Made by a program: the position numbers and the translations under genes | In this document: piece by piece, positions 10,580 through 59,846 of the stretch | Position numbering within the stretch: position 1 is the first letter of the stretch | Layout: every line of letters begins with the position of its first letter | Assembly: GCA_002314795.1 (NCBI GenBank) | Contig: DCHI01000078.1 | Coordinates: forward strand, 7,898-71,897 | Origin: Bacteroidales bacterium UBA1756 | GTDB taxonomy: Bacteria; Bacteroidota; Bacteroidia; Bacteroidales; WCHB1-69 | Reading direction: 5' to 3' | DNA length: 64,000 bases | Notes under the pieces: generated by a model | The model's database searches: none | What the model was told of the DNA's origin: nothing | The model's input: only the letters and a program-made list of their open reading frames with translations

Positions 10580-11281
10580 CTATCTTTTAATACTTAATTT
10601 TTTAACCAAGATTCCATTATCAGAAAAGATTTTGACAATATACATCCCTTCGGCGAGAGCAGAGACATCAAAGGTAGAGGACTCCGTCAAATTGGAGAAG
10701 GCACTAACACGACGACCGCTTAAATCAAAAATCTGTAATTCTTTAGGATTGATTCCCGAAAGAGAGAATGAAGTGGACGTCGGGTTCGGGAAAAGCGACA
10801 CTTCAGAATTTGGAATGTCGGAAACAGGAAGCGGGCGTGTAAAGTTGATACAGGAAACATTATTTGAAGAATCCGGATCCGTAGCAGCTCCGATAATCTT
10901 GACTTCAAAGCAAATGTAACAAGCCATCAAGTGATATTGGTCCATCACTTCGGACGTCCAGATGGGTTGAGCCAAATCCACGATGGTTTGTTGTCCGGTA
11001 GTGAGCGACTGCAACTGCGCCCCCATCATTCGAATCGTAGTGATGTAAGTAGTCTGGTTATTCGTTACCAAGAAAATAACGGAATCCGTAGCGGCGGGCA
11101 CCGCGGGACCATTATTCTTTAAAATAACACGCGGTTTGAAATCATCGGAAGCATTTAATACGATAGAAGAAATCTGACTCCCCTGCTCATCAGCAAAACC
11201 AACAATTTCATAATCAACCTGCTGTGCATTAAGACAGAACAGAGGTAATAAGAGTGTCAATAAAATAAAAAAACGTTTCAT
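10580..11281 (-). CDS. Secreted protein with CARDB-like N-domain and T9SS type-A C-terminal sorting domain
   Basis: It has a signal peptide MKRFFILLTLLLPLFCLNAQ. The C-terminus SLFPNPTSTSFSL...GMYIVKIFSDNGILVKKLSIKR is typical of Por_Secre_tail. Confidence 0.75.
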   Translation of the reverse strand: MKRFFILLTLLLPLFCLNAQQVDYEIVGFADEQGSQISSIVLNASDDFKPRVILKNNGPAVPAATDSVIFLVTNNQTTYITTIRMMGAQLQSLTTGQQTIVDLAQPIWTSEVMDQYHLMACYICFEVKIIGAATDPDSSNNVSCINFTRPLPVSDIPNSEVSLFPNPTSTSFSLSGINPKELQIFDLSGRRVSAFSNLTESSTFDVSALAEGMYIVKIFSDNGILVKKLSIKR

Positions 11282-13486: not shown

Positions 13487-16400
13487 TTACTTGATAATGA
13501 CAACTCGTTTAGTTACTAAAGCATCTTTGCTACGTGCTGTGATAAGGTAAACACCTTGAGCATAATCAGCAGTAGAAATCTTAACGATAGGAGTGCTTTG
13601 AGTATCAAGAACGTCAAGGTTAATTGTTTGAAGAACAGCGCCATTCGGGCTGGAAAGCATAACCTTAGTTTCACCTTCAAAACCTTGGAGTTCTACTTGG
13701 ACGAATTCCTTAGCAGGATTCGGGTAAACAGTAGCTTGAGGAACAATTTCTGCATCATCTGCAAATACCACAGTACCATTTATAGGATCAGTAGATGGCA
13801 TCGGAGACGGAGTAGCAGAAGCATCAACGTGGAAATAAATATCAATAGAATTATATTCTTTTTCAATAACAGAAGAGTTACCACCGACAGGAACGTTAAG
13901 AGCCAAGTTCCAAGTATAATTTCCAGAAGGATTAAGATGATTACGTTTATGCAAAGTAGCAACAATCTTATAGTCGCCTTCGCCATCATACAACGGAGAA
14001 CCGAAGCGGTTAATCAAGATAGTATTTGCACGAGCGTCAGCGTAGAAATCACCAGAACCAGTATGTTCGTGACCCGGAGGAAGTTGTGCTTCATTATAAT
14101 CCGGGGCAGCCCAACAAAGATTGAGGTAATCGTAATCCCAATCGTGACCAGCACCGTGTGGAGTATATAAATCAGGAATAGAAACATAACTGTTATTACT
14201 AACAGTGTTGGGTAAGGAGAAGTTGTCAAAGAACGTACGATAGTACGGTTCGAAATAGTCCGTAACATTAGACATCAACTCATAATTTTCAGTAACGTCA
14301 TTGTAACGATAGAGTTCATACTCAATAGATACACCAATATTCGGATCACAACCAGTACAGTTACGATCAATAAAGATTTCCCAACCAACATTGGTAGAAG
14401 CAGTATTGAAGGTATCCATAATGGTCTGTTCTTGTACCTTAGACCAATCACTTCTCTCAGAAAAACGACGAACCTTCAAGAATGGGTTATCTTCAACATT
14501 CAAATAGAGATTATAAATACTATCACAACCGTGAGAAGTAGGAATATTTTCAGAGAAGTGATAAATAGAATCAGAAACTGTGAATTCGGAAGCCGGTATT
14601 GTTTTAGATCTGTCAGGTGTAATCTGCCAATAATAACCAGAAACAGAAGCAACAGAGAAACAAACACGATCAACATCACTGAATGAATAGGAAGGATAAA
14701 CTGACTTCACAGCTGAAGTATCAGTTGCTGAGCAGTTATGTGCATCCGTAACAGTAGTAATCACTCTATAATCACCAACTTCTACAGCAACCGTATCCAA
14801 GATAGAAGATGCCGTTGAATCAAGAATTTGAGAAATTGAATCAGGTAACATCCACAATTTAGAAACGAAAGTGTAATCGGTTGTACCACCCGTAGCAGAA
14901 AGATCAAGAGCTATCAAACCAGCTGTACAAGTACCGTCCAAAGTAACAGTGTTAGTCAAAATGAGTTCATCAGGTTCACCAACAGTAATCGTATCTGAAA
15001 CGGAACAACCAAACGTGTCAACAACAGTAACAGTGTAAAAATCAGCATCAAGAGAAGTGAAAGTGTAGGTTGAAAATACAGATGGAACTGGAGTAGAACC
15101 ATTATCGTAGGTAAATGGAGATTGACCACCCGTAACAAAAACTGTTATAGAGCCATCTCCGGATTGATAACAAGTAAGATCAACAGCAGTAAGTGACGAA
15201 ATCTTGATTGAATCTTCCACTGTAACGACGATATGAATCGTATCAACATTATTGCAGCTATCCGTAAATATAATTTCAACTTCCGTATCATTAATGATTT
15301 CAGTACCTGCAACAGGGGCTTGAGTATATAACTTGTATGCGCTTACCCAGTTATCACTGAAATGATCAGCAACGGTGTCTGAGAAATCAGGAACGAAGAA
15401 TTGACAGGAAAGGTTACGTACAGCGGGAACGGTATCCAAATAGTCAAAGTTAATAACAGTCGGAGCAATCGTATCCTTAATAACAATTTTATGAGTAATG
15501 GTATCAGAAACATTACCACAACTATCAACAACCGTATATTTTCTCGTGATGAAGGAGGAACAAGCAATCTTGTCAATAGTAGTGTCAGCGGTAACAGAAT
15601 GAATAGCATCAACTAACTTGCAGTCGGTAACAGAAGCACCATTAGCATTCAACTGAGTAGCGGTGGTATAAGGAGCATTAGCAGTATAAACACCAAATTC
15701 ATCAACATAAATAGTCGTGTCATTCAAAATATTGTCGGCAACATAAGGTTTTAATGTATCGGTAACGAAGAAGAACTGATTAAAAGTAGAAGTGTGACCA
15801 CAAGAATCTTTTACGGAATAAGTGCGGTGAATCATCATCGGACAGAAACCAGAAACAGTATCGATAGCTGAAACGGTTAAGTCTTTCTTCAACTTACAAT
15901 CAGTAACCGTAATACGTGTGGGGAGTTCATCAACACTAGCATACGTCAAAGACGGATCAATCGTATAGCCACAGATATTATCCAAATACAATGTAACCGT
16001 ATCGAGTGTACCAACTACAAGAGGAGCAATCGTATCAGCAACATAAACTGTATCGTTGAATGTAGAAGTATGAGCACAAGAATCATAAACCGTGTAAGTA
16101 AGGTAAACGGTCTTGGCCTTACTACAATCAGCTCCACCAATTTCGAGGGTATCAATTGTACAAGTCAACGTATCTTTCAAATTGCAGTCAGTAATACCAG
16201 CCAGCATAGTAGACGGAAGATCCGTTACGTGAGTATAAACAGTATAGGCGAAATTACAAGAACCATCCATATATACCTGTTGAGGAGTCATAACAGTAGT
16301 GATGGCAGGAGCAGTAACATCATTGATATAAATAGTATGCGTAAAGTAATTTGAAACCAAGCCACAACTATCAGCGATAGAATATGTTCTGACAACCGTA

Positions 16401-19400
16401 CGTGAACAGCTGACAGCAGCCGTATCATCAGACACCAAAGTAACAGGAGTATTATCACCAACATTGCAATCAACAACGCTGAAAGCAGAATCGTATGCCT
16501 TAACTTGGCCAACAGTAGTGAAATAAGGAATAGCAACACCTAAACAATTACTACTGGATTCATCCATATCAATAACAGAATCCTTAACTGTAGTAGAGAC
16601 AACAGGAGCAACTGTGTCAAGGACAACAACACGCTGGAAGATTGTATCAGACCAATGGTCAGAACACTTATCTTTCACTTGATATCTTACGACCACAAAA
16701 GAGGTACAGTTATCACGTGTAGTATCCGCAAGAGACAATCTACGAATGTTAGCAGGATTAGACCAATCAGCATTACAATCGTTCATAACGACACCGTGGT
16801 CAATAGCATCTTGCGGAGTCGTCCAGAATGGAACACCCGGAATCTCGCACGCAATAGTGTAGTATAAAGTGTCATAAACAGTAGCTGTATCAACGGTGAC
16901 AACGGGAGCCAAAGTGTCCAAAACAGTAATAGTCAAACGAATGGTATCCGACATATTACCGCAGGAGTCAGCAACCGTATATTTGTAATGAATACCGAAA
17001 GAACAAGCAAGTGCATCTACAATACTATCATACATCGTGACAACTGAGGATTCACCCACATTACAATCAGTCACAACATCAGCCCCTTCCCAATCATTCA
17101 AAGCACGAACAGTTGAGAAATGAACATTCGGAACAGTATAACCGCAAGTTGCATTCAAATATACAGTATCTCCCTTCAAATCAGAAACATTGACTGTAGG
17201 TGCAATAGTATCAAGTACGGTGAGAGTATGCGTAAAATCAGTATGATTACCAGAAGCGTCTGTAGCTCTATAGGTTCTGGTTAAGGTTCTGTCGCAAGAA
17301 AGCGATGAAAGAGAACCAGGTGTAAATACGGAAACCGTAACATCGCTACAATCGTTAATTGTAAGACCGACGTATGTTTTAGCGATAATACTTGTATAGA
17401 TAGCATTGGTATCAGCAGTTAATATACCACACGTACTATTCATATAAATGGTGTCGTACAAAGCAATCGGAGAAACAACAGGACTTGTAGTATCCAAAAT
17501 CGTAATCGTATGCTTAATCGTATCGAGGTTGTCACAACCATCATTCAATTTATAGTATCTAGTAACTACGTAAGGACAAGTAGTTCCGGTAGTATCAGAA
17601 TGAACTAAAGAGACTGTAGTATTGGAAAGGTGACAATCAGCAATAGTAGGATTAGAATGATGAGCATTCATTTCAGTTACTGAAGCAAAAGGAGTAACAG
17701 CAGGAAGAACACATTCTGAATAAGCACCTTGATAGATAGTATCAGTCATATCATTGGCAAAAGTAGGCGCGTCTTCATCATAAACAACAACCGTTTGGTA
17801 AAGTGTAGTATCGTTACCACAGTAATCTAAGAATGTATATGAAAGACGATAGTAATCGTGACAATCATCTGACGGAAGAGTACCATCGTGAAGAATCCAA
17901 ACGCGAGAATTATCATCCATACTACAATCATCCCAACCAGTAATATGTCCATATTTGGGATCAGCCTTTAATTGAGACATCGTATAAGATCCCTCAGCAG
18001 GCAAACTGACTGAGGGTTGGCAGGTTGCTGCATCAAGCTTGATAGAATCATTTTGCAAGGTATCCGTACCAACAGCCGTAATGATATGAGGAACTACACT
18101 ATCGTAAATACGGAAATTAGCGGTTTTGATGACGGAGTTACCGCAAGTATCCGAAACGGTCCAACGAACAGTATAAGTACGAGCAGAAGAAACAGTGGAA
18201 CAAGGATGAGTCGTAGCAATCGTATCAACAACGACAGAGTAAGAATTTTTACAAACGTCGTGTGCAACAAGACTGTTTTGCCAAAGAGTCATAGCGGCAG
18301 AAATAGCAGCTTCATCTCCACAGGGGAATTCTTGATCAGTAGGAGTTACATCGACAACTGGAGCAGCGTGGTCAACAATCTTGAAGTTTTCGCGAGTGGT
18401 CTCAGTATTACCACAAGCATCTTTCGCTTCCCAAAGAATGAAATAGGATCCTTCACAATCCGTAGTAGATTGATAGCCTTTATAATAATCCGGTTTGGAC
18501 GGAATAACATAAGCAGTATCAAATGGGTAATAAATAGCAGAGCTGGAAGTTTCAAAGTAATAGTAAGACATCGTTACGGTATCACGATTTTGTCCATCGT
18601 ATGCACGAACACCATAAAGCCAATTAAGGAATTGTGTCTTGTTACCTGCACCATCACATTCAACAACTTGGTCGATAGGACGCGTAAGTGTATCGATAAT
18701 AGGACTAATATGGTCAACGAGGTAGAAAGTATCAAGGTAGAAAGCGGTATTACCACAACCATCTTCAAATACCCAAGTAGTAACATATTTGGCAGTGCGA
18801 CCACAACCTCTAATTGTATCAGTCATAATCGTATCTATTACAGCAACCGAGCAAGCATCATCAAAGGTCACCTGAGCTAACCAAGCGGCGTATTCAGCCG
18901 CAACATCAGCCGTATCTACTTCTACTTCAGTATAAACAGGACGAGTGACAATATAAGGAGCAACCGTATCAATTACTTGGAACCAAGCGGTATCAGAAGC
19001 AACATTACCATAAATATCGTAGGTGAAGAATGCCCAGGTTTCTGTATAGACAGAAGCATTACAGCCAGGAACAGAATCAAGACGAGTGTGATACAAAGTG
19101 TCAATAGCACAATTATCCGTTGAGGTATAGGAACTCAAGAAGGCATTGTACTTATAAGACAAGAAGTAATCATCACAAGCGACAACAACAGTATCGCTAA
19201 GGAGCGTTGTATTAAGAACAGGAGCAATCGTATCAACGACAACAATAGTTTGAGTTTGCTCAGCAGCAACATTGCCACAAGCGTCTTCAGCTTTCCACGT
19301 TCTATAAATGGTATCTTTTACGTGTGTCGAAGTACGTGAAACTTCAGGAAGTGTGTAATCAACACGTGAGTCAACCGGAATCGTAACATCAGAATAAGTG

Positions 19401-22400
19401 ACCGTAATATCGGCAACAGCCGTACAGTTGTCAGTAACTATGATAGAACCTAAAGTAGCAGTATCAGTAATCGCAGTACAAGTACCTGCTTCAACACAAA
19501 CTAATGTATCTGAAGGCAAAGTAAATACCGGTTTAACAGTATCACTAACATAAATAATATGAGTGAGGGTATCACTGGTCAAACCACACTTATCGGTAAC
19601 GGAATATTTTCTTACAACAACGGTAGGACACATTCCAGCAAAAGATTGACTCATATTAACAACGAGTTCATCAACCGCGGTACAGTTATCGGAGAGTGTC
19701 AAACCCGCAGCTTGTAAAGCAGCAACGGTAGTGTATGCGGCAGGAACAAGACCCGGCATAGTGACCGTATCCGGACAGTCATAAACCGTAGTGTCTCCCA
19801 ACGCACCAGCCAAAGTAGGAGCTACGGTATCAAATATTCTATAGGTAACGTTACTTGTAGCAACACAAGCAGAGTCGTCAGTCACTTTGAACACAACATA
19901 GAAAGTGGTATCGCAACTGACCGTAGATTCTGTATAGGTATATGAATCGGCAACTGTATCAGCAACTTCAGTGCGAACAGAAACAGAGTTGGAAGTCCAT
20001 TCAAATTTATAGGGAGTTCTGCCACCTTCTACCTTAGCATCATAGACGTATGTGCCGAGGTGCGGACAGTTACTTGCCGTAGGAGCAGTTAAAGAGGTAA
20101 CAGCTAACGGAAGTGCAGGTTGTTCAATGGTAACGGAGTAGAAAGTATCAGCTGTACAGAGATTTGCATCGGTGATAGTAACCGTATAGGTACCAGCTGT
20201 AAGAATGCGTCCGGTAACAGAATCTCTGCTTACTACACTATCATTCATTTTCCAAGTGTAGGAATACGGAAGCGTACCACCAGTAATGCCTGTGATAGCA
20301 GCATTACCATTAGCTTCACCGTAGCACTTAACATTATTCAAGACAATCGCACCAGCGAGAGAAAGTTGATCAGGTTGGGTAAGAGTTCCATTTGCATTAG
20401 TTGTGCAGTTGTGAGCATCAATAACAGTAATAACGTATGAACCTGCTTTTTGGTTAGTCATATTGACAGTAGTATCCAATACAGAAGGATTCAATGTCAT
20501 CACAACAGTATCAGAAACAGCGACCAATGTTCTTACGATTGTAACTGAATAAGGAGCTGTACCTTCCTTAACGCGGAATGAAAATGAACCATTATTTGAT
20601 TCAAAGCAGGTAAGGTTCGTCCAACCGCTGGTAGTAAGACTTAAAATATTCGGAGAAGCGACATCGGCAGTATCGAGAACATTTACTTCACAACCGTTAG
20701 CATCCACAACCTTGATATCCCATTTACCTTTAATCAAACCAGCGAAATCAAAGACGTTTTGAGTAGCAGTTCCCATTTGAGTATAAGTAGAGTCAGCGAC
20801 TTCTTTACTTTTAATAGTAACGATGTAAGGAGCAGTACCCTCGGCAACGGTAACGCGAATAGCGCCATTGGCATCACCGGCGCAGAGAACAGTAGCAGTC
20901 ACTTCAATATTTGTAACAGCAAGAGGAAGTGTAGGAATAGTAACAATAACAGAAACAGAATCCCTATGACCGCAATCATCCGTTGCATAAATCCACATTG
21001 TATAAGGAGCTTCAGTACTATCAATTTCTGTGCCTACAGCAGGAACCTGAACTACACTTGAAATACTACCGCAACCATCACCAACAGAATCTACAAGAAC
21101 GAGAATATTTGGAAGCACGTACTTACAGTCGTGACCTGCAACCGTCGTGGTAGCCGTGGTTCCATTCATATAGATATGAGGAACATCCGTATCAGCAAGC
21201 GTATATTCTATTGAAACGACAGCTCCTAAGTTCATAGAACAACCGTGAGCGTCAGAACCAGAAACGATTCTATCGCCATAGGTAACCGTTGCACAAGTAG
21301 GAACAGTTGCAAAAGTTGAAGTAGCAATACTATCTACAACTGAATGAGTAACCTGAGCAGCATCATTATTGCTCCAAGTAACTGTATAAGGAGCAAGACC
21401 ACCACTGATAGCAAAAGTGGCCTCGTGATTGACGTTGGTCATACAGAAAGTATCAGCAACTACAGAAGAAGTAGTAGCAACGCCATCAAAAGTTGAAAGA
21501 ATGACACTCGGATGCTCATAAACGGTAAGTGTAACCGTATTACTATGAGCCGAACAGCTATTAGTAACTGTAGGGCCATAAACCGTGTGCGTGAAATCAT
21601 TGGTAGCGTCTGCACTATAATCACCAGCATTAGCAGGAACGGCAATAGGATTATAATAATAATTAGTAACAGACATTGTATCCAATCCGTGGAACCAAGT
21701 AAAATGATCGAAGGTTGGATTAAGCCTCAATTGAAAGAAGTCTGCCGAATTTTCACAACGTTCAGTTGCTCCAATGGCTGAAACAACCGGATTCGGAGTC
21801 GGGTTGACCTCAGCAAAGATGCGCAAGCTATCCGTACTGATACAACCTTCCATAGAATATGACTTAGCATACATAGATGTATTGCTCGTAATGTACAAGT
21901 CATAGATTCCCCAATTAGTATCGACAGCGACATTGGCATCATTGTACCAAATCACTTTGTCAGCACCTTCGGGAAGAACCTCAAAATGGACCATTCCCGA
22001 ATCGCAAACCAACAAATTGCTGTGTACTGTATCAAGCGTAGGAACTTGAGGATCTTGAACGATGAGGCGGAAATAAACAATGCTATCAATGGAAATGTGG
22101 CAAGAAGATACTCCGTGGAAAACAACACTATCTAACATACCAGCAGGAGTGGGAGTCCAAAACTCAACACCACCGAGAACGAAAGGAAGTTGAGCGATAC
22201 AGGTGAACTGATCACCAATAGTATCTCTTATGAAAGCACGGAGTGTATCGGAGGAAAGAATTCCACAAACAACACTTTGATGACCGCCAACATAATAGCG
22301 TTCATCATTGTCTTCATAAATCATATCCCACTTTGTTCCACCGCAACGTTTAGCCAAGGAAAAGATGAATTGATATTCACCATCAACCTTAATATTATAG

Positions 22401-22933
22401 ACAAGACGATGAGCCGTATTGGCAACGTCTTTGAACCATCTCACATAAAAATAATCGAACTCGTATGGATTGTTCTGACCAGGAAGAACGATGGAGAAAT
22501 GTCCGTCATCTTCACAGGGTTGACCAAGTTCCAACCCTTGCGTCGGCGTGTGGGCGCCCGGATAACTGCCGTAGCCGTTACCGTTTTGACAGTAGTGGCT
22601 TGTGTAGGAATCTCCCCACCATCTTTCAGCGTTTCCGAGATCGTAGCGTGACTCAAATTTGAAATCTTCAAAATAGTAAGAAAGAGAATCATTAGGAATG
22701 ACGTGTCCATTGTAGAGAACCTTCCACTCGATGGATACTCTATCGGTATCACTCAAATGAAGCGCGTCAAAGCAAGAAGAATTGGGGCTGATGATAACGG
22801 TGTCATACTGGTTCAGCACAATCGGATCCGGCATATTGGCCGGAGTAAGCACCAAACCAGATTGAGCCTTCAAGCCCAAGGTGAGCACGACAAAAAGCAC
22901 GCTCAAAACGCAAAAAGATAAAACTTTTTTCAT
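13487..22933 (-). CDS. Giant (3148 aa) T9SS-secreted adhesin-like protein with SprB repeats and about 17 HYR/Ig-like modules
   Basis: It has a signal peptide MKKVLSFCVLSVLFVVLTLGLKAQS and SprB-type repeats (for example VKCYGEANGNAAITGITGGTLPYSYTW and LTCYQSGDGSITVFVTGGQSPFTY). Repeated modules start with D-T-x-A-P (FDTVAPTLAG, VDTIAPVLNT, LDTLAPVVTV...) and contain DNC...D.CGN cysteines. The C-terminus is a type-A CTD (VYPNPAKEFVQVEL...YLITARSKDALVTKRVVIIK). Confidence 0.9.
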   Translation of the reverse strand: MKKVLSFCVLSVLFVVLTLGLKAQSGLVLTPANMPDPIVLNQYDTVIISPNSSCFDALHLSDTDRVSIEWKVLYNGHVIPNDSLSYYFEDFKFESRYDLGNAERWWGDSYTSHYCQNGNGYGSYPGAHTPTQGLELGQPCEDDGHFSIVLPGQNNPYEFDYFYVRWFKDVANTAHRLVYNIKVDGEYQFIFSLAKRCGGTKWDMIYEDNDERYYVGGHQSVVCGILSSDTLRAFIRDTIGDQFTCIAQLPFVLGGVEFWTPTPAGMLDSVVFHGVSSCHISIDSIVYFRLIVQDPQVPTLDTVHSNLLVCDSGMVHFEVLPEGADKVIWYNDANVAVDTNWGIYDLYITSNTSMYAKSYSMEGCISTDSLRIFAEVNPTPNPVVSAIGATERCENSADFFQLRLNPTFDHFTWFHGLDTMSVTNYYYNPIAVPANAGDYSADATNDFTHTVYGPTVTNSCSAHSNTVTLTVYEHPSVILSTFDGVATTSSVVADTFCMTNVNHEATFAISGGLAPYTVTWSNNDAAQVTHSVVDSIATSTFATVPTCATVTYGDRIVSGSDAHGCSMNLGAVVSIEYTLADTDVPHIYMNGTTATTTVAGHDCKYVLPNILVLVDSVGDGCGSISSVVQVPAVGTEIDSTEAPYTMWIYATDDCGHRDSVSVIVTIPTLPLAVTNIEVTATVLCAGDANGAIRVTVAEGTAPYIVTIKSKEVADSTYTQMGTATQNVFDFAGLIKGKWDIKVVDANGCEVNVLDTADVASPNILSLTTSGWTNLTCFESNNGSFSFRVKEGTAPYSVTIVRTLVAVSDTVVMTLNPSVLDTTVNMTNQKAGSYVITVIDAHNCTTNANGTLTQPDQLSLAGAIVLNNVKCYGEANGNAAITGITGGTLPYSYTWKMNDSVVSRDSVTGRILTAGTYTVTITDANLCTADTFYSVTIEQPALPLAVTSLTAPTASNCPHLGTYVYDAKVEGGRTPYKFEWTSNSVSVRTEVADTVADSYTYTESTVSCDTTFYVVFKVTDDSACVATSNVTYRIFDTVAPTLAGALGDTTVYDCPDTVTMPGLVPAAYTTVAALQAAGLTLSDNCTAVDELVVNMSQSFAGMCPTVVVRKYSVTDKCGLTSDTLTHIIYVSDTVKPVFTLPSDTLVCVEAGTCTAITDTATLGSIIVTDNCTAVADITVTYSDVTIPVDSRVDYTLPEVSRTSTHVKDTIYRTWKAEDACGNVAAEQTQTIVVVDTIAPVLNTTLLSDTVVVACDDYFLSYKYNAFLSSYTSTDNCAIDTLYHTRLDSVPGCNASVYTETWAFFTYDIYGNVASDTAWFQVIDTVAPYIVTRPVYTEVEVDTADVAAEYAAWLAQVTFDDACSVAVIDTIMTDTIRGCGRTAKYVTTWVFEDGCGNTAFYLDTFYLVDHISPIIDTLTRPIDQVVECDGAGNKTQFLNWLYGVRAYDGQNRDTVTMSYYYFETSSSAIYYPFDTAYVIPSKPDYYKGYQSTTDCEGSYFILWEAKDACGNTETTRENFKIVDHAAPVVDVTPTDQEFPCGDEAAISAAMTLWQNSLVAHDVCKNSYSVVVDTIATTHPCSTVSSARTYTVRWTVSDTCGNSVIKTANFRIYDSVVPHIITAVGTDTLQNDSIKLDAATCQPSVSLPAEGSYTMSQLKADPKYGHITGWDDCSMDDNSRVWILHDGTLPSDDCHDYYRLSYTFLDYCGNDTTLYQTVVVYDEDAPTFANDMTDTIYQGAYSECVLPAVTPFASVTEMNAHHSNPTIADCHLSNTTVSLVHSDTTGTTCPYVVTRYYKLNDGCDNLDTIKHTITILDTTSPVVSPIALYDTIYMNSTCGILTADTNAIYTSIIAKTYVGLTINDCSDVTVSVFTPGSLSSLSCDRTLTRTYRATDASGNHTDFTHTLTVLDTIAPTVNVSDLKGDTVYLNATCGYTVPNVHFSTVRALNDWEGADVVTDCNVGESSVVTMYDSIVDALACSFGIHYKYTVADSCGNMSDTIRLTITVLDTLAPVVTVDTATVYDTLYYTIACEIPGVPFWTTPQDAIDHGVVMNDCNADWSNPANIRRLSLADTTRDNCTSFVVVRYQVKDKCSDHWSDTIFQRVVVLDTVAPVVSTTVKDSVIDMDESSSNCLGVAIPYFTTVGQVKAYDSAFSVVDCNVGDNTPVTLVSDDTAAVSCSRTVVRTYSIADSCGLVSNYFTHTIYINDVTAPAITTVMTPQQVYMDGSCNFAYTVYTHVTDLPSTMLAGITDCNLKDTLTCTIDTLEIGGADCSKAKTVYLTYTVYDSCAHTSTFNDTVYVADTIAPLVVGTLDTVTLYLDNICGYTIDPSLTYASVDELPTRITVTDCKLKKDLTVSAIDTVSGFCPMMIHRTYSVKDSCGHTSTFNQFFFVTDTLKPYVADNILNDTTIYVDEFGVYTANAPYTTATQLNANGASVTDCKLVDAIHSVTADTTIDKIACSSFITRKYTVVDSCGNVSDTITHKIVIKDTIAPTVINFDYLDTVPAVRNLSCQFFVPDFSDTVADHFSDNWVSAYKLYTQAPVAGTEIINDTEVEIIFTDSCNNVDTIHIVVTVEDSIKISSLTAVDLTCYQSGDGSITVFVTGGQSPFTYDNGSTPVPSVFSTYTFTSLDADFYTVTVVDTFGCSVSDTITVGEPDELILTNTVTLDGTCTAGLIALDLSATGGTTDYTFVSKLWMLPDSISQILDSTASSILDTVAVEVGDYRVITTVTDAHNCSATDTSAVKSVYPSYSFSDVDRVCFSVASVSGYYWQITPDRSKTIPASEFTVSDSIYHFSENIPTSHGCDSIYNLYLNVEDNPFLKVRRFSERSDWSKVQEQTIMDTFNTASTNVGWEIFIDRNCTGCDPNIGVSIEYELYRYNDVTENYELMSNVTDYFEPYYRTFFDNFSLPNTVSNNSYVSIPDLYTPHGAGHDWDYDYLNLCWAAPDYNEAQLPPGHEHTGSGDFYADARANTILINRFGSPLYDGEGDYKIVATLHKRNHLNPSGNYTWNLALNVPVGGNSSVIEKEYNSIDIYFHVDASATPSPMPSTDPINGTVVFADDAEIVPQATVYPNPAKEFVQVELQGFEGETKVMLSSPNGAVLQTINLDVLDTQSTPIVKISTADYAQGVYLITARSKDALVTKRVVIIK
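15215..19838 (-). repeat. Protein-level array of about 15 consecutive divergent HYR-like modules within the giant gene (coordinates approximate)
   Basis: D-[TH]-x-[AKSV]-P motifs recur every 90-110 codons from FDTVAPTLAG (about nt 19838) to KDTIAPTVINFD (about nt 15478). The DNA copies are diverged, with no near-identical repeats seen. Confidence 0.6.
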
Positions 22934-27446: not shown

Positions 27447-29105
27447 ATGAAGCATTTATTACAATCTTTCATTGTCGTAGCTCTTTGCTTTTGCAGTTAC
27501 GCAGCTATGGCACAAATGAGTTATGGGGGAGAACCCTTCTCTTTCAAAAACACAATTTCTCAAGTTGTTCCGACTGAGCAAATTGAAGCATTGGACGTTG
27601 AAGCTCTTTTAGCTGAAGACGAAACCATCGAAGGCAAAAGTCACCCGCTTCGTATCGGTGTCACAAAGGACGTCAATCTCACCATCAACAACTCCGGTCG
27701 TATCGACATTTTGCCAAACGGTGACCGCGTTTGGCGTATTGCTTTCCATATGGATCAAGCCACGTTCACGTCTATGAATTTCTCCACGTTCAATATTCCT
27801 GACGGAGCCGAATTGTTTTTATACACTCCTGACAGAGAGTATGTTATCGGAAAATTCACCAACAAGAACATTATGGAAGATGGTACTTTCTATCCGCAGG
27901 AACTTCCTGGCGAAGATGTTGTTGTTGAATACTACGAGCCCGTTAATGCGGCCTTCCGCGGCAATCTCGTCATCAACCAGATTTCTCAAGGTTACCGTGA
28001 TTTCTTCCACGTAAAAGACGTTGAAGGAGGAATTGGCACAGCAGAAGGCAACTGTCACCCGAACGCCATCTGCAAAGATGCACAATGGCACGCACAAATC
28101 AATTCCGTTGCTTGCTACACGATGACATCTGGCGGATCCGTTGGCATTTGTACTGGCGCTATGATTAATAACACTGCACGCAACGGCAAACAGTATTTTC
28201 TGTCTGCTAATCACTGCTACACCAGCGGAGCCACCTACAAATTTTATTTCAAATATCAAGCTACTACCTGCACTGGAACCAATGGTTCTATTTTAAAAAC
28301 CGCCACCGGTGCTACCGTAAAGGCAAGAGCAGAGACATCCGAAAGTGCTATTTATAACAGTTCTGACTTTATGCTGCTGGAAATCACCGGAACCATCAAT
28401 CCTGCCTACGACGTTTACTTTGCAGGATGGGACTGTACCACAACGGTTCCGTCCAACGCAAGCTCCTGCGGCGCCATTCACCATCCAGGCGGTGATATCA
28501 AGAAATTCAGCACCCCTACACAGATTAAAAACGGAAGCCAAATGTACTCCAACACAGGAAACTACTGGGGGACCGTATGGGGAAGCAACGGCACAACCGA
28601 AGGTGGTTCATCTGGTTCACCCTTGTTCAACAGTAGCAAACGGATCGTTGGGCAATTGCAAGGTGGTTCAAGTGCTTGCGACTGCACCGGCAGCAACTGT
28701 CCTGATTTCTACGGCAAACTCTCCTACTCTTGGACAAACAACAACAATAGCAGCAACAGCAAAAAACTGAAACCGTGGTTGGATCCGAACAACACCGGTG
28801 CTACTACGCTTGATGGCCAATGGATGACGGGAGCCCCGAGTGCCTTACTTGAACAGGAAGAAGTTTCACAGCTCAACGTTTTCCCGAACCCATCCGAAGG
28901 AATGTTCACCATTCAAGGAACGTTCAGTGGCAACGATGGTATCTGCAATGTTTACAATCTGATGGGCGAACTTGTTTCTTCCAAGAAAATGACGTTGAAC
29001 CCAGAAATGACCTTAAATCTCAGTCATCTCAATTCAGGTATGTACCTCATCGAAATTAGCGACAACGAACAGATTTTCCGCTCAAAAGTACTTATCAACA
29101 AATAA
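27447..29105 (+). CDS. Secreted trypsin-like (S1, lysyl-endopeptidase-like) serine protease with T9SS type-A CTD
   Basis: It has a signal peptide and the catalytic motifs LSANHC (His), SDFMLLE (Asp) and GGSSGSPLF (Ser). The C-terminus is LNVFPNPSEGMFTIQG...GMYLIEISDNEQIFRSKVLINK. Confidence 0.85.
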   Translation: MKHLLQSFIVVALCFCSYAAMAQMSYGGEPFSFKNTISQVVPTEQIEALDVEALLAEDETIEGKSHPLRIGVTKDVNLTINNSGRIDILPNGDRVWRIAFHMDQATFTSMNFSTFNIPDGAELFLYTPDREYVIGKFTNKNIMEDGTFYPQELPGEDVVVEYYEPVNAAFRGNLVINQISQGYRDFFHVKDVEGGIGTAEGNCHPNAICKDAQWHAQINSVACYTMTSGGSVGICTGAMINNTARNGKQYFLSANHCYTSGATYKFYFKYQATTCTGTNGSILKTATGATVKARAETSESAIYNSSDFMLLEITGTINPAYDVYFAGWDCTTTVPSNASSCGAIHHPGGDIKKFSTPTQIKNGSQMYSNTGNYWGTVWGSNGTTEGGSSGSPLFNSSKRIVGQLQGGSSACDCTGSNCPDFYGKLSYSWTNNNNSSNSKKLKPWLDPNNTGATTLDGQWMTGAPSALLEQEEVSQLNVFPNPSEGMFTIQGTFSGNDGICNVYNLMGELVSSKKMTLNPEMTLNLSHLNSGMYLIEISDNEQIFRSKVLINK

Positions 29106-49167: not shown

Positions 49168-50616
49168 TTACATTTTTACAATCCGTGCCACACGCCCATT
49201 CTGTTGAATGAAATAGATACCTGCGGGGTACGCAGACATATTCACGGTCATACGTTCTTCGGACGCGACCACGCGCATCAATTCCGTACCTACCGAATTG
49301 TACAAAACCACCGTTTCTCCCAAAACCGTTTCCACCGTCACATTAGCGGTACAAGGATTCGGATGAACGGAGAGCGGCTTCGTTTCATACTCACTGACAG
49401 ACGTTTGTCCCGGAGTCCAGCCATTGAGGACACAAACTCCGTCCAAGTCAAAACCACCAGAAGCGAAATTCGTCGGGTAGGGATCATTGATGATGTGATT
49501 GTTTTTATCACGTGAAGCAACAGCGGGATCAATAGAGCCGATGACATCAATAAGTTTCACGTGCGTAACATTATTAACATCTAATAACTCGTTGTCAGCC
49601 AATTCATCCAAATCGAACGGAGTTCCCCAACCCACACGATATTTTCCAGCCAGATTGTGCAAGTCACGCGGATCAGTGCCACCATTGTTATCTATCTGGA
49701 CATCCGCGGGCGTATTGGAAACAGCAGGGAAGCGGACGTAGTTCACACCATCGGAACTGACTTCCACAAAAGCCAATTCCAAGAAGGAATCATTCAAAGA
49801 ATTTTCAAAAATAGCGAAATCATAGCCGTCACCATTTTGAATCGGAATATCAAAAGTCAAGATGGCAACGCCGCTGTCACCCAAGCTAACGACATCCATC
49901 GTACTTTCTGTGGCAGCGCCAACTGCGTCGGATTCAGCACCATACGAAACGAAAACGTTTGGAACGGTTATATCTTGCAAACCACGTTCTATCTGACAGT
50001 TGGTGGCCCAGCCCAAGATGGCAGGGTCTTGGCAGAAGATGGCCTGACAACCTTCCGTCCCAACGGCACCGTCATACTTAGTAGTGTCCACAATGACCGT
50101 ATCTGTCGTCGTCGTGTCCGAACCACCTAAGGAGCTGACGGGAAGAACCGGAGTCGTCCAAGCACAACTGCTCCAATCTTCGGAAAAAATGCCACAGGCG
50201 TAACCGCCCCATTTCACCACATCTCCATTCACAATTTCCTGTGACTCATAGCCAACTTGCGCCATCAGACTATTGACATTATACATCGGGAAATCGCCAT
50301 CCATCGACAAATCATATTCTTCATCGTGATAAAAAATATTGTTTATCGTCCCGCCGCCACCTTCATAGGTAAAGCGAGGGTCGGCTGCTGCAATGGAGTC
50401 CATCATTTCAGAAACAAGCAAGGTGGAATTTTCAAAACGGAAGCCCCAAGCCAAAGCCACTTCCGGACTACACCAACTGACAATCAGAATGGCTTGATTG
50501 GAACCTTCGCCAATCCAATATTGAATTTGATCTGCTGAAATAGTTGCATCGTCCTGCGCTTTCATCGTTCCAAAGAACAGGCCTACAAAGAGTAGTGATA
50601 ATAGAATTTTTTTCAT
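49168..50616 (-). CDS. Secreted protein of unknown function with T9SS type-A CTD (middle gene of the riboswitch operon)
   Basis: It has a signal peptide MKKILLSLLFVGLFFGTMKAQ and a central DGYDFAIFENS...LELAFVEVSSDGVNYVRFP domain. The C-terminus is LSVHPNPCTANVTVE...AGIYFIQQNGRVARIVKM. Confidence 0.8.
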   Translation of the reverse strand: MKKILLSLLFVGLFFGTMKAQDDATISADQIQYWIGEGSNQAILIVSWCSPEVALAWGFRFENSTLLVSEMMDSIAAADPRFTYEGGGGTINNIFYHDEEYDLSMDGDFPMYNVNSLMAQVGYESQEIVNGDVVKWGGYACGIFSEDWSSCAWTTPVLPVSSLGGSDTTTTDTVIVDTTKYDGAVGTEGCQAIFCQDPAILGWATNCQIERGLQDITVPNVFVSYGAESDAVGAATESTMDVVSLGDSGVAILTFDIPIQNGDGYDFAIFENSLNDSFLELAFVEVSSDGVNYVRFPAVSNTPADVQIDNNGGTDPRDLHNLAGKYRVGWGTPFDLDELADNELLDVNNVTHVKLIDVIGSIDPAVASRDKNNHIINDPYPTNFASGGFDLDGVCVLNGWTPGQTSVSEYETKPLSVHPNPCTANVTVETVLGETVVLYNSVGTELMRVVASEERMTVNMSAYPAGIYFIQQNGRVARIVKM

Positions 50617-54480: not shown

Positions 54481-55677
54481 TTATCTTGTAGCGTCAATAG
54501 CTTGTTTAATCAATTGGAAAGTGCGTTCCGGATCGTTGTCCAAACCGACAGAGAAACGGATGAGACCTTCGCTCATACCCATTTCCTTTTGGATATCATC
54601 GGGGACTTCGGAAGATGTAGATTTTCCGGAGTTGCTGAACAAAGTCTTGAAGTAGCCCAAGCTGACAGCGAGGTAGCCGACGCCTAATTCTTGCATTTTT
54701 TCCATAATGGCGCTGGCACGTTCAGCCGTACCCATATCAATGGAAATCATACCGCCATAACCGTAACCATCATTCATCATACTGGTAAACAATTCGTGGT
54801 CAATATGTTCCGGAAGTCCAGGATAATTGTACTTGATACCGGTTTCTTTGAAACGTTTGGCCAAGTACATTGCATTTTCGCTATGCTTTTTCATACGGAT
54901 GTGCAAGGTGTGCAAATTCTTCTGGATGCTGGAAGAACGGAACGTATCCAACACTGGGCCGAGCAACATAGCCGTACCATTATTTACATCAATCAGGGAG
55001 TTGATATAATCGGCTGTACCACAGATAGCACCTGCTACGCAGTCGTTCATACCGTTTACATACTTGGTCATACTGTAAATGACAACGTCTGCACCCAAAC
55101 GATAGGGGGAGAAAATCATCGGGGTGAAGGTATTGTCAACCAACAAGCGAGCGCCAGCGGCGTGAGCGATCTTGGAAAGTTCCGGAATATTGGCGATACG
55201 GAGCAACGGGTTGTTCATCGTTTCGGTATAGAGGACTTTCGTATTGGGACGAATCGCTTTCTTTACTGCATCCAAGTCTTGGAAATTAACGAAGGATACC
55301 TCAACATTGAATTTTTTAAGATAATTGTTGAGGAAAGCGAAAGTACCGCCGTATGTAGTCATACTGGAGACGATGTGATCGCCGGATTTCACTTCGTGCA
55401 TCAAAGCGACGGTGATGGCAGCCATACCTGAGCCGGTAGCCCAAGCTGATTCAGTTCCTTCCATAGCAGCCAATGACTCAGCCAGTGCCAAGGTGCTTGG
55501 ATTCCAATGGCGAGAATAGAGAAAATATCCTTCCGTTTCGCCGTGGAAAGTATCGGTCATCGTTTTGGCCTTTTCAAACATAAAGGTTGCGCTATCGCAA
55601 ATAGCAGGGTTGACGCCTCTGTAAGCATCTTTCTTGTCCAACTTTTCAATGTTGGTTGCCGGATCAAATTTTTCCAT
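54481..55677 (-). CDS. Cys/Met-metabolism PLP-dependent enzyme (methionine gamma-lyase / cystathionine lyase-synthase family)
   Basis: 398 aa. It has YSRHWNPST, SGMAAI, the PLP-lysine context VIYSMTKYVNG and a C-terminal GLIRFSVGLD. Confidence 0.8.
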   Translation of the reverse strand: MEKFDPATNIEKLDKKDAYRGVNPAICDSATFMFEKAKTMTDTFHGETEGYFLYSRHWNPSTLALAESLAAMEGTESAWATGSGMAAITVALMHEVKSGDHIVSSMTTYGGTFAFLNNYLKKFNVEVSFVNFQDLDAVKKAIRPNTKVLYTETMNNPLLRIANIPELSKIAHAAGARLLVDNTFTPMIFSPYRLGADVVIYSMTKYVNGMNDCVAGAICGTADYINSLIDVNNGTAMLLGPVLDTFRSSSIQKNLHTLHIRMKKHSENAMYLAKRFKETGIKYNYPGLPEHIDHELFTSMMNDGYGYGGMISIDMGTAERASAIMEKMQELGVGYLAVSLGYFKTLFSNSGKSTSSEVPDDIQKEMGMSEGLIRFSVGLDNDPERTFQLIKQAIDATR

Positions 55678-55801: not shown

Positions 55802-56590
55802 TTACAGACACAGCCGGCGTTCGACGGAGGGACGTTTGGACAATGAGAACAGACCTTCCGCGGGACAGTCAATCACATACAACCCGTTTCGGCAGGCGTA
55901 CTCTTTAACTCCGTGTTGAAAGTGCACACCCACAATGGCTGCATAAACTTTGTATTTATCAAATGGGTGAAATACTTTCTTGAAAATGCGCAACTGTTTA
56001 AGAAAGTGGTCGATGTCTTTTTTTGTACACTTGGATTTTACTTCAATGGCTACGGCTTCTGTTGTATTGCATAGGATGGCGTCCACTTCCATTTCATCGC
56101 CGTCGTCGTCTATGGCGTGTGTGATGCCCGTATAGCGCTGCGTGATGCCGATACCCTCTTTCATAAAAATGTCAATGGTAGCAGGTATGCACATCTCTTC
56201 CAAAAAACGCCCCCATTCATTATCTAAAATGGAAGTCCTTTTCATCAGTCTGTCCATTTGATCAGTAATTCTATCGATTGTCTTCCAAATATTGTCTTTC
56301 ATTTTCTGAAAGTCACTGTCAGATTTTCCAATCTGTTCAGAAGTTTCTTTGACTTTTCGGTCCGTCTCTTTCATTTGTCGGTCCGTCTCCTTTATTAGTC
56401 GGTCCGTCTCTTGCAGCTTCCGATCCGTTTCTTTCATTTGCTTGTCCGTCTCTTTTATTAGTCGGTCCGTCTCTTGCAGCTGCCGATCTGTTTCTTTCAT
56501 CTGCTCGGTGACGGAATCTAAAAATGCACCTAAATGTTCCCAATCTATGGGAGAATACTCTTTTTTTGGAATATTTTGTGATTGTTCCAT
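55802..56590 (-). CDS. Coiled-coil heptad-repeat protein with C-terminal PD-(D/E)XK nuclease-like domain (DUF3782-like)
   Basis: 262 aa with eight heptads [KQ]ETDR.. The C-terminus EMEVDAILCNTTEAVAIEVKSKCTKKDIDHFLKQL fits D...E.K. Confidence 0.65.
   Translation of the reverse strand: MEQSQNIPKKEYSPIDWEHLGAFLDSVTEQMKETDRQLQETDRLIKETDKQMKETDRKLQETDRLIKETDRQMKETDRKVKETSEQIGKSDSDFQKMKDNIWKTIDRITDQMDRLMKRTSILDNEWGRFLEEMCIPATIDIFMKEGIGITQRYTGITHAIDDDGDEMEVDAILCNTTEAVAIEVKSKCTKKDIDHFLKQLRIFKKVFHPFDKYKVYAAIVGVHFQHGVKEYACRNGLYVIDCPAEGLFSLSKRPSVERRLCL
56330..56497 (-). repeat. In-frame 21-bp tandem repeat (8 units) with a 63-bp higher-order duplication
   Basis: GGTCCGTCTC recurs at 56380, 56401 and 56464, and CGATC[CT]GTTTC recurs at 56421 and 56484. 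The array encodes KETDRQL QETDRLI KETDKQM KETDRKL QETDRLI KETDRQM KETDRKV KETSEQI. Confidence 0.85.
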
Positions 56591-58078: not shown

Positions 58079-58137
58079 TTCTCTTTGAATGAAAAACTTT
58101 TAAGAAAGACTTCAATAGAGAGGCAACATTAAAAAAA

Positions 58138-58145
58138 TAGATTTG
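58138..58145 (+). promoter_or_regulatory. -7 promoter box for the ECF sigma operon
   Basis: TAGATTTG lies 27 nt upstream of the ATG at 58172. Confidence 0.45.
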
Positions 58146-58171
58146 TATCATACCCCGTCAAGCGTTTGGAA

Positions 58172-58765
58172 ATGATAAGTGACAGTGAGTTAATACGCAA
58201 GTGCAAGCAAGGAGATTCGAAGAGTCAGTCGCTGTTGTACGAAAAATACGCTCCAATGCTAATGGGGATTTGTATGCGATACGCCCACGACGAAGAGGAT
58301 GCCTGCGACATTTTGCACGACGCTTTCGTCAAGATTTTCACCAACATCAGCAAGGTGGATGAAAATGGCTCCTACGAGGCCTGGATGAAAACCATCACTG
58401 TCAACACGGCCATCAATGCCTACCACTACAAGAACAAAACCAAGGGGGCAGTTGCGGTCGATGAGGTGCAGGAACGCGTGGAAGACTTGAGAATCAAGCA
58501 AAACGATTTCTTATCACAAGAAATACTGCTGCGGTTCATCAACGAACTTCCCGATGGCTACCGAACCGTTTTCAACCTGTTTGAAATTGATGGATATTCT
58601 CATTTGGAAATATCCAAAATGATTGGCAGTTCGTACAGCACCGTACGATCGCAACTTTTCAAGGCCAAACGCGCCCTGAAGAAAAAGATCGAGGAATACC
58701 TCGGAACCGAACTTAAACAAAGAGGTTACGGAGAAAACAAGGAAACGGAAGAAGACAATGAATAA
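58172..58765 (+). CDS. ECF-type sigma-70 family RNA polymerase sigma factor
   Basis: The region 2 sequence is YAPMLMGICMRYAHDEEDACDILHDAFVKIF. The region 4 HTH is YRTVFNLFEIDGYSHLEISKMIGSSYSTVRSQLFKAKRAL. Confidence 0.85.
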   Translation: MISDSELIRKCKQGDSKSQSLLYEKYAPMLMGICMRYAHDEEDACDILHDAFVKIFTNISKVDENGSYEAWMKTITVNTAINAYHYKNKTKGAVAVDEVQERVEDLRIKQNDFLSQEILLRFINELPDGYRTVFNLFEIDGYSHLEISKMIGSSYSTVRSQLFKAKRALKKKIEEYLGTELKQRGYGENKETEEDNE

Positions 58766-59846
58766 AGAAAAAGAAATCGGGGAAATTTTCAAGGAAGGGC
58801 TTGATGGCTATCGAAAGGAGCCGCCGGCAAACCTTTGGAATGACATTCAGAACGACCCCACACTGTTGAAATACAACCGCCGCCGCAAGATGGCACGAAC
58901 TGCTAAATGGGCGGTTGTCGCTACCGTTGCTGCAGTCGCGATTGCCGTTGTTGCACTCCTTCCTTCCATTCCCAAAGAACAAGAGAAAACCACTCCCCTC
59001 CCCGTACAAAATCCTTCTTCCACCATCGTTGCATCTGAAAACGAGAACGTTTCCAACACAGTACCCGCACAGATTTCCACTCCGGAACAACCATCTGAAA
59101 CAACAGACCGCGTCGCTCATTCCAACCAGCCATCTCCCGTCACTTTCAAGCAAGAACCCCGCATCAACCATCAGGAGATGAATACTGCGGCAGCTGTCGA
59201 ATCCATCCAAGAAACCAAGATAGAAAGTCCATCGCTCGCACAAAGTCTCCACGCTGTCACTCATCCGGAAACGGCACCTATGACTTCCGAGACCAAGCCG
59301 TCTAAACCGAGTACGCCCATTGTTTCAGCACCTGTCTTCCAGCTCAAAACCAGAGAGGGGAAACCGATCGAATTCAGTCACGACACTTCCGTCTGCAGGG
59401 GCAGCAGACTCACTTTGTTTGTAAAAAATGCGATGGACGTACGCTGGAACATCGGATTGACAGGAGAATCCATCACCGTATTTCCAGATGCTCCTATGTT
59501 TGTGGAAGCCACTGTCACAACGTTCGACAAAGTTGACACCACTATTTATATACACGTTGGTATTTTTGAGTGCGGACTTTGGATTCCGACGGCATTCACA
59601 CCGAACGGCGACGGGCTGAACGACGAGTTCATCATTCACGCGCCGGCGGACATCACGAATTACGAATGCACCATTTTCGACCGTGGTCGCGGAATGCTTT
59701 TCCGGACGAACAACATCAAACAGGGGTGGGACGGAAATTTCAACGGAAATCCACTTCCGTTCGGAGCCTACTTCTACATCATCACCTATCGTGATGCATT
59801 GGGCGAAAAGCACGTTGAGAAGGGACAAATCACCCTTGTTCGCTAA
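58758..59846 (+). CDS. Anti-sigma-like single-pass membrane protein ending in a T9SS type-B (gliding-motility-associated, CHU_C-type) C-terminal domain
   Basis: It overlaps the sigma gene by 8 nt (ATGAATAA). The N-terminus has ...EPPANLWNDIQND..., a basic patch and a TM helix AKWAVVATVAAVAIAVVALL. A Pro/Ser/Thr-rich linker follows. The C-terminus is IPTAFTPNGDGLNDEFIIH...GWDGNFNGNPLPFGAYFYIITYRD...GQITLVR. Confidence 0.75.
   Translation: MNKEKEIGEIFKEGLDGYRKEPPANLWNDIQNDPTLLKYNRRRKMARTAKWAVVATVAAVAIAVVALLPSIPKEQEKTTPLPVQNPSSTIVASENENVSNTVPAQISTPEQPSETTDRVAHSNQPSPVTFKQEPRINHQEMNTAAAVESIQETKIESPSLAQSLHAVTHPETAPMTSETKPSKPSTPIVSAPVFQLKTREGKPIEFSHDTSVCRGSRLTLFVKNAMDVRWNIGLTGESITVFPDAPMFVEATVTTFDKVDTTIYIHVGIFECGLWIPTAFTPNGDGLNDEFIIHAPADITNYECTIFDRGRGMLFRTNNIKQGWDGNFNGNPLPFGAYFYIITYRDALGEKHVEKGQITLVR

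Follow-up and report, generated by a model that had tools for sequence, protein, structure and literature searches.

A putative Dma-like anti-sigma factor ending in a type-B secretion domain, encoded beside an ECF sigma factor in Bacteroidales

The closest described system to the one reported here is the Dma family of trans-envelope anti-sigma factors. Dma1 is encoded together with Das1, an extracytoplasmic function (ECF) sigma factor of type ECF21, and the first 40 residues of Dma1 suffice to pull down Das1 (PMC10927553). Behind them come a transmembrane (TM) helix and an extended disordered stretch, and the protein ends in an OMP_b-brl_2 barrel of eight strands. Dma1 spans both membranes and is proteolytically processed, its C-terminal fragments leaving with vesicles (PMC10927553). 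A NigD gene adjoins the Dma1 operon, and Reo/EcfO of Bacteroides fragilis is an orthologous pair (PMC10927553). A gene pair that resembles this system in part is found in Bacteroidales bacterium UBA1756 (WCHB1-69 lineage), in a stretch of 64,000 nt of contig DCHI01000078.1 (assembly GCA_002314795.1, positions 7,898 to 71,897, forward strand) that was analysed as a whole and is called the window below. It comprises an ECF sigma factor gene and, directly downstream, a gene for a single-pass membrane protein, the partner. The partner is best read as a putative Dma-like anti-sigma factor in which the outer-membrane barrel appears to be replaced by a type IX secretion system (T9SS) C-terminal domain (CTD) of type B. 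Coordinates of the features are collected in Table 1.

The signal peptides of T9SS substrates are cleavable (PMC12618676). Outer-membrane shuttles of the PorP/SprF type take charge of type-B CTDs, which stay bound to them, and the shuttle gene usually adjoins the substrate gene (PMC9143113, PMC12618676). In Flavobacterium johnsoniae, however, three of 12 type-B substrates are "orphans" and make common use of a shuttle whose gene lies at another place (PMC12618676). A disulfide bond joins SprF to a periplasmic track that moves (PMC12635249). An ECF sigma factor is tied to the T9SS in the PorXY-SigP/PorA system of Porphyromonas gingivalis, as may also be the case for the window pair, and there the CTD-bearing PorA feeds back on signalling (PMC7712824). 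SigP differs in being controlled by the PorX response regulator and not by a membrane anti-sigma factor, and PorA differs from the window protein in being a conventional secreted type-A CTD protein with no anti-sigma module (PMC7712824).

The sigma protein matches Sigma70_r2 (1.5e-13, residues 24-88) and Sigma70_r4_2 (3.7e-14, residues 119-171) in Pfam, and TIGR02937 in NCBIfam with 82.5 bits against a cut-off of 42.9. Sigma-2 and sigma-4 are the sole domains in 197-199 residues, as in ECF (group 4) factors, and the nearest solved structures are of the RpoE/AlgU/SigW type. In the first-pass annotation, made from the letters of the DNA, the feature was begun at position 58138, which carries no start codon and lies in the promoter region. 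The sigma reading frame itself was correctly recognised; it starts with ATG at 58172, and its N-terminus (MISDSELIRKCK) is kept among homologues. An alternative TTG start is present at 58166. The overlap between the sigma stop and the partner start is also as described there: the stop TAA (58763-58765) and the partner ATG at 58758 share the 8 nt ATGAATAA.

The partner was aligned with 80 full-length homologues (311-392 aa, 24-52% identity). This alignment resolves the protein into four conserved blocks with one variable stretch between. The first block is a short cytoplasmic domain, here called the N-module. Residues 1-42 are conserved, with the consensus M.KE.EIGE.F.E.L.GY...PP...W..I......KFNR, and I7, G8, P22, W27 and I30 are near-invariant. 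The P..LW..I motif that had been pointed out in the N-terminus is found as PPANLWNDI at residues 22-30. An AlphaFold2 (AF2) model built from the 80-sequence alignment has short helices at 7-15 and 26-31, one long continuous helix spanning 34-66, a low-confidence stretch from about 70 to 195 (predicted local distance difference test score, pLDDT, <50), and two beta-sandwiches at 205-272 and 276-362, each with pLDDT >90.

An uncharged hydrophobic span starts near residue 51 in 80/80 members, with a median length of 21 residues (range 19-24). The mean number of K/R is 6.1 in the 15 residues before the span and 1.55 in the 15 after it, in keeping with the positive-inside rule, and no conserved A-x-A cleavage site is seen at the span across the family alignment. 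By such sequence rules the segment is judged to be an N-in/C-out signal anchor and no typical cleavable signal peptide, in agreement with the single TM helix first proposed; by the same rules, the cleavable N-terminal Sec signal peptide of a T9SS substrate is missing. An internal start at Met45 followed by a classical signal peptide was considered and ruled out. Met45 is not conserved while residues 1-42 are, so translation from M1 is indicated. The stretch after the anchor is unconserved in sequence and strongly biased in composition (37% P+S+T; 61% P/S/T/Q/N/E). It had been described as a Pro/Ser/Thr-rich linker of about 120 residues; the composition stands, but the length is 132 residues. 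As in Dma-type proteins, a single TM helix is thereby followed by a long disordered periplasmic region.

The first 275 residues of the partner have no match in Pfam or NCBIfam. Class I anti-sigma domain (ASD), zinc-binding anti-sigma (ZAS), RskA and FecR models do not match residues 1-75, and a match to CU044_5270 at E 0.0098 is at chance level. The search for anti-sigma N-terminal families, suggested in the first-pass annotation as a check, is thus negative in these two databases.

The first-pass annotation had named the absence of the gene pair from all other genomes as grounds for rejecting its own reading. The pair is, however, conserved elsewhere. An ECF sigma gene lies immediately upstream of the genes for homologues P0040, P0067, P0077 and P0081 (25-37% identity), in surroundings that are otherwise different. 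A metagenome scan with a non-CTD alignment of six sequences added 17 further loci, and loci were screened with hidden Markov models for the sigma factor and for the N-module. A related sigma gene is directly upstream in 24/24 loci that have upstream sequence. Junctions between the two genes range from -26 to +30 nt, and are most commonly -4 or +6/7. Two further loci stand outside these 24. One starts at a contig edge; the other, L106 (1-1914), was rejected as a sigma-less exception, being a chimeric contig of 1x coverage in which residues 1-70 of a family member run into unrelated sequence.

A genome-contig scan with the full-length alignment drew its pattern from the CTD motif and was swamped by ordinary type-B cargo. 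Only L001, L002 and L004 were family members there, and the other 77 loci served as a negative control, with a sigma-like open reading frame (ORF) within 4 kb at 3/77. L002 and L004, in which the N-module is present, both have the sigma gene upstream. As the pairing is conserved in all 24 loci with upstream sequence, it is more than chance. The sigma factors appear to have diverged together with their partners: identity to the window sigma falls through 62, 57, 47, 43 and 39% in step with partner divergence. Sigmas beside N-module proteins are 37-62% identical to the window sigma, against 27% for an unrelated ECF sigma from one of the same loci. The ECF sigma gene and the partner gene are strongly supported as a conserved, tightly coupled pair, and with an N-terminus of 45 residues, read from M1, that is conserved in about 80 homologues and always has the sigma gene directly upstream, the initial view of the pair as a sigma/anti-sigma module is very probably correct. 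The family is widespread, with at least about 140 clusters, mostly from uncultured Bacteroidales.

The N-module is not confined to this family. When a profile of residues 1-72 was run on a set of 1.84 billion representative proteins, 1345 clusters reached E <=0.001. Architectures were determined by inspection and Pfam scan for the top 137 hits outside the first homologue list. One copy of the N-module, a TM helix, a linker and CHU_C are present in 59 of the 137, including a separate subfamily of about 300 aa. Another 17 have one to seven tandem N-module copies ahead of the TM helix and linker, and terminate in an outer-membrane barrel of the OMP_b-brl_2 family. The third architecture comprises multi-copy N-module proteins with no assigned domain at the C-terminus. 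A type-A CTD (Por_Secre_tail) was found in none of the 137. An ECF sigma gene is immediately upstream of P0138 (300 aa, CHU_C), P0217 (single-copy barrel) and P0125 (multi-copy barrel), and the sigmas beside proteins of Dma architecture are 37-38% identical to the window sigma. Set against the 27% for the unrelated ECF sigma, this is an indirect pointer to the ECF21 group of Das/EcfO-type sigmas, to which the window sigma may belong.

In the database search P0217 is matched with E 2.2e-8 and P0125 with 9.1e-20, the repeats of the latter being independent of the TM helix. Aligned by hhalign, the N-terminal profile of the window family matches that of the P0217 barrel family with 98.6% probability (E 7e-16, 41 columns), and because all 41 columns are cytoplasmic, this match is independent of the hydrophobic helix. 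The P0217 locus (L087) carries a NigD_C gene at 1259-1918 on the minus strand, two genes from the sigma/barrel pair. Its gene order mirrors the NigD2-Das1-Dma1 neighbourhood of Bacteroides thetaiotaomicron, and the nearby NigD_C gene supports the view of the P0217 barrel protein as a Dma1 orthologue. Used as a query itself, P0217 returned only Prolixibacteraceae-like relatives. Homology of the N-module with that of sigma-adjacent Dma-architecture proteins is strongly supported by these profile comparisons, and the anti-sigma role first suggested for the partner gains from it, as the N-terminal 40 residues of Dma1 bind the sigma factor (PMC10927553).

A core of about 30 residues (F..L..y...P....W..I) is repeated three to seven times in tandem before the TM helix in many outer-membrane barrel proteins. 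P0125, P0128, P0129, P0130, P0134 and P0139 are among the proteins with this core, which is also present in the third class, in proteins of 350-400 aa. One of the latter, P0183, has a weak match to the 'antisigma' model NF052375, and this was the sole match in an NCBIfam scan of the related sigmas and partners, which identified no specific family.

In its predicted layout, the window protein departs from Dma in the defining barrel alone. As with Dma, the gene follows directly after that of an ECF sigma factor, and its product combines a short cytoplasmic N-module (about 40 aa) with one TM helix and a long disordered periplasmic region. Unlike Dma, it ends in an immunoglobulin (Ig)-like domain and a type-B T9SS CTD, with no OMP_b-brl match and with two beta-sandwiches where Dma has its eight-stranded outer-membrane beta-barrel. 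A connection to the outer membrane would therefore need the T9SS and a separate barrel of the PorP/SprF type, not insertion of the BAM (beta-barrel assembly machinery) type. The gene order, single TM helix and cytoplasmic N-terminus, with co-transcription and sigma binding predicted for the window pair, are also as in RseA/sigma-E and FecR/FecI-type factors, and release by regulated proteolysis would be expected as in those. However, no class I anti-sigma, zinc-binding or FecR domain is detected in the partner, its N-module is far shorter, and its extracytoplasmic part is a secretion signal and not a known sensor domain.

The same observations bear on whether the partner is an anti-sigma factor at all. 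It might instead be ordinary secreted T9SS cargo under the control of the upstream sigma, its signal peptide cleaved and, much as in autotransporters with their extended signal peptides, preceded by a long conserved N-extension. The C-terminal 160 residues do resemble any small type-B cargo, and neither Pfam nor NCBIfam yields an anti-sigma match. But a span of 19-24 residues with about six K/R ahead of it and no conserved A-x-A site is unlike a cleaved signal peptide, and the tight or overlapping junctions are typical of sigma/anti-sigma pairs. A sigma gene is rare near ordinary type-B cargo (3/77 loci), whereas the N-module is common to outer-membrane barrel proteins that are also always beside an ECF sigma, and the equivalent 40 residues of Dma1 bind sigma (PMC10927553). 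Ordinary cargo is therefore regarded as highly improbable.

The C-terminal part of the partner consists of two domains. The Ig-like domain is a conserved block (SxDTxVCRNS...NA..V.W..G...DTTIYI..V.DC) with a near-invariant Cys213/Cys272 pair, which is in line with the N-in/C-out topology. Foldseek with the partner model returned generic tandem Ig-like folds only. Homologues P0082 and P0089 (311-324 aa) have the N-module, TM helix, linker and type-B CTD but no Ig-like domain, which is thus dispensable for the architecture. The last domain, at the extreme C-terminus, matches CHU_C (PF13585) with 1.5e-17 over residues 276-359 and profile positions 3-85 of 86, and TIGR04131 with 8.8e-18 over the full profile. 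The complete CHU_C/TIGR04131-type CTD that had been read from the translation is thereby borne out in the profile searches that were asked for. There are 13 invariant CTD residues across 80 members, and purifying selection on the type-B CTD is strongly supported by this pattern of conservation. The sole solved structure related to it in sequence is that of the GhpA C-terminus, from a T9SS protein that Aureispira secretes.

As in the type-B substrates SprB, Fjoh_3952 and PG1035, a complete TIGR04131/PF13585 domain is at the C-terminus with a conserved beta-sandwich before it, and the combination of Ig-like sandwich and CTD fits the extended type-B signals that have been reported (PMC9143113, PMC12618676). 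The window protein differs from such substrates in having an N-in signal anchor behind a conserved cytoplasmic domain of 50 residues in place of a cleavable signal peptide. It is also small (362 aa), lacks adhesin or enzyme domains, and is obligately paired with an ECF sigma gene.

Proteins with type-A CTDs in the window (Table 1) indicate that the host has a T9SS. No PorP/SprF gene was found in the 30 window ORFs scanned. The immediate neighbours of the operon are queA upstream and tRNA-Gln and nusA downstream, so the absence of an adjacent PorP/SprF-like gene had been correctly observed. In this the window protein is like the orphans Fjoh_1123/1720/4934.

A complete CTD behind a membrane anchor can be interpreted in two ways with respect to transport. 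In the first, the same sigma/anti-sigma pair carries a CHU_C-like domain that is never transported, and the partner would be a conventional single-membrane anti-sigma factor with a co-opted sensor or docking domain in the periplasm. Such a domain might bind to peptidoglycan, to a PorP-like protein, to a T9SS surface facing the periplasm, or to some other ligand. Conventional anti-sigma factors do have periplasmic sensor domains (PMC10927553), and all known T9SS substrates carry cleavable signal peptides (PMC12618676). The inner-membrane anchor is hard to square topologically with passage through the translocon, and the shuttle gene is not adjacent. On the other hand, the type-B signature is complete over the whole profile, with its 13 invariant residues, and the sister architecture terminates in an outer-membrane barrel. 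The TM helix and the CTD are at least 129 aa apart throughout 140 proteins, a distance that is needless for a domain acting near the membrane and expected for a tether that spans the periplasm. A purely periplasmic domain is accordingly considered rather unlikely.

In the second interpretation, the partner would be a trans-envelope tether joining the inner membrane to the T9SS apparatus of the outer membrane. This is favoured over a purely periplasmic sensor because the separation of helix and CTD is never shorter than those 129 residues, and because, in the 137 proteins scanned, T9SS tails behind the N-module are of type B, never of type A. The restriction to type-B would fit a tether, as type-A CTDs are cut from their cargo and type-B CTDs stay bound to an outer-membrane protein. 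The chances of the tether being real are put at about even.

A conserved motif upstream of the sigma gene looks like an ECF-type autoregulated promoter. The sequence GGCAACAT-N13-TTGTAT lies about 50 nt before the sigma start, with a spacer of 16 nt from GCAAC to TGT. Of 17 non-redundant loci, 11 carry GCAAC-N16-TGT at positions -46 to -50 relative to the sigma start; in shuffled sequence, 0.08 would be expected. More distant loci retain GGCAACA and have a different downstream element. A search of the window for a regulon by this motif was made and discarded, as only the operon's own promoter was found, and looser matches were intragenic and at chance frequency.

Under the tether interpretation, the pair would be an autoregulated ECF sigma/anti-sigma operon. 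The N-module of 45 residues would, by homology, keep the sigma factor bound on the cytoplasmic side of the inner membrane, with the partner anchored by one helix that is N-in by sequence rules. The disordered linker of about 130 residues would cross the periplasm, as its composition and the AF2 model suggest, and the Ig-like domain and type-B CTD would stand in place of Dma's own outer-membrane beta-barrel. Recognition of the CTD by the T9SS and by a shuttle encoded elsewhere would then link the inner membrane to the outer, the shuttle's barrel taking the role of the Dma barrel. If the outer link were lost, strained or proteolysed, the partner would be exposed to regulated intramembrane proteolysis, and the freed sigma would transcribe its own operon from the motif above plus a further regulon. 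By analogy with Dma and RseA, a sigma factor that is OFF with the tether intact and ON once the outer link fails is favoured.

The logic of the signal may also be of another kind, along the lines of the pulling or cleavage suggested in the first-pass annotation: molecules engaged by a working T9SS, or by the GldK/PorK track in motion, would be pulled or cut, and the sigma would report flux or motor activity, being ON when the machinery is working. SprF-type shuttles are covalently on the moving track (PMC12635249), which would put force on inner-membrane-tethered cargo, and the processing of Dma1 with loss of C-terminal fragments in vesicles (PMC10927553) would be a parallel. Genes for M16 peptidases follow the partner gene in distant members; however, there is no neighbouring protease gene in the window or the closest homologues. 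An autoregulated operon of this kind would also be activated without restraint as soon as the T9SS is at work, whereas ECF systems are usually OFF by default. Such secretion-coupled destruction is considered unlikely, and the T9SS gating first suggested, by pulling, cleavage or sensing through the partner, is speculative. It is similarly doubtful, although conceivable, that the partner is an inner-membrane-tethered T9SS 'substrate' acting as a mechanical or occupancy sensor. Its CTD would be caught by the translocon and by an SprF-type shuttle on the moving GldK/PorK track, and force or failed hand-over on the tether would control proteolysis of the anti-sigma factor.

Several points weigh against a Dma-like tether. 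The main difficulty is topological, as a substrate anchored in the inner membrane cannot be fully translocated, and passage of the linker through SprA or a shuttle is without precedent. No PorP/SprF gene is adjacent at any locus seen (window, L081-L089). Sequestration of the sigma factor by the N-module is predicted from homology, and this homology runs via proteins of Dma architecture and context, not via Dma1 (BT_4721) itself. In addition, no Pfam or NCBIfam anti-sigma model matches the partner, and the strict promoter motif has no second match in the 64-kb window.

Some neighbouring genes recur among the loci. A gene for a pyridoxal phosphate (PLP) enzyme of Cys/Met metabolism is near the operon in the window (54481-55677, minus strand) and in L081 (6280-7476, plus strand), the locus of a homologue with 37% identity. 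It represents residual synteny with no obvious functional link. In distant loci of the CHU_C type a Peptidase_M16/M16_C gene is directly after the anti-sigma-like gene, and in L085 there is also one before it (L084 5486-6754; L085 3116-4354 and 6158-7441; L088 5003-6292). These M16 peptidases could be candidate processing proteases; the gene is absent from the window and the closest relatives. In several lineages a second protein of about 660-700 aa is encoded just downstream of the operon (L085 7481-9475; L088 6365-8437; L094 2697-4781; L095 2654-4738; L096 5081-7180; L097 1470-3554). It has Pfam matches to fn3 and CHU_C in L085, and fn3 plus a C-terminal match to the family profile in L088, and could be a regulon member or a co-secreted partner. 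A further ORF in the window (55802-56590, minus strand, 262 aa) has tandem heptad-like repeats of the 'KETDRQLQETDRLI' type in its N-terminal half and a weak match to DUF6674.

Table 1. Positions of the sigma/partner operon, its parts and proteins with type-A CTD matches in the window.
Feature	Position	Strand	Basis
Putative ECF-type autoregulated promoter	58122..58148	+	-35-like GGCAACA 58122-58128, -10-like TTGTAT 58143-58148
ECF (group 4) sigma-70 factor gene, 197 aa	58172..58765	+	Sigma70_r2 and Sigma70_r4_2; TIGR02937 above cut-off
8-nt overlap ATGAATAA, sigma stop/partner start	58758..58765	+	Direct sequence reading
Anti-sigma-like single-pass membrane protein gene (partner), 362 aa	58758..59846	+	About 80 full-length homologues, 24-52% identity
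Cytoplasmic N-module, aa 1-45, putative sigma-binding domain	58758..58892	+	Conservation, AF2, profile search, hhalign
Transmembrane signal anchor, aa 51-72, N-in/C-out	58908..58973	+	Hydrophobic span, charge bias, AF2
Disordered periplasmic linker, aa 73-204 (132 aa)	58974..59369	+	Composition, pLDDT
Ig-like beta-sandwich, aa 205-272, conserved	59370..59573	+	Alignment block, pLDDT, Foldseek
T9SS type-B C-terminal domain, aa 276-362	59583..59843	+	PF13585 and TIGR04131
232-aa protein, type-A CTD (Por_Secre_tail)	10580-11281	-	
3147-aa protein with SprB repeats, type-A CTD (Por_Secre_tail)	13487-22933	-	
Trypsin-like peptidase, type-A CTD (Por_Secre_tail)	27447-29105	+	
Weak Por_Secre_tail match below Pfam cut-off	49168-50616	-	

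No published description of an anti-sigma factor with a T9SS CTD was found in literature searches, from which most subscription-journal literature was outside. In this respect the searches agree with the first-pass annotation, which knew of no such protein. The link to the trans-envelope Dma/Reo family was not drawn there; with that family as a close parallel, the design is a variant and not unprecedented.

If the Dma-like reading is correct, the partner would be the first protein to carry a T9SS sorting signal while remaining anchored in the inner membrane, and it would challenge the rule that T9SS substrates require a cleavable signal peptide. Along with Dma, it would make two architectures in Bacteroidota in which one polypeptide reaches from the cytoplasm to the outer membrane. 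To our knowledge, regulation of the T9SS is otherwise known through PorXY-SigP only, and the partner would provide a route by which the state of the T9SS/gliding apparatus, or of the cell surface, is reported to the transcription machinery. Were the partner a mechanical or occupancy sensor, transcription would be gated directly by secretion and gliding motor activity. The 40-residue N-module would be a portable putative sigma-binding cassette, found in at least 1345 clusters and joined to three or more kinds of extracytoplasmic end. Uncultured Bacteroidales of gut and rumen commonly carry the family, and this may be the reason that it was overlooked in model species.

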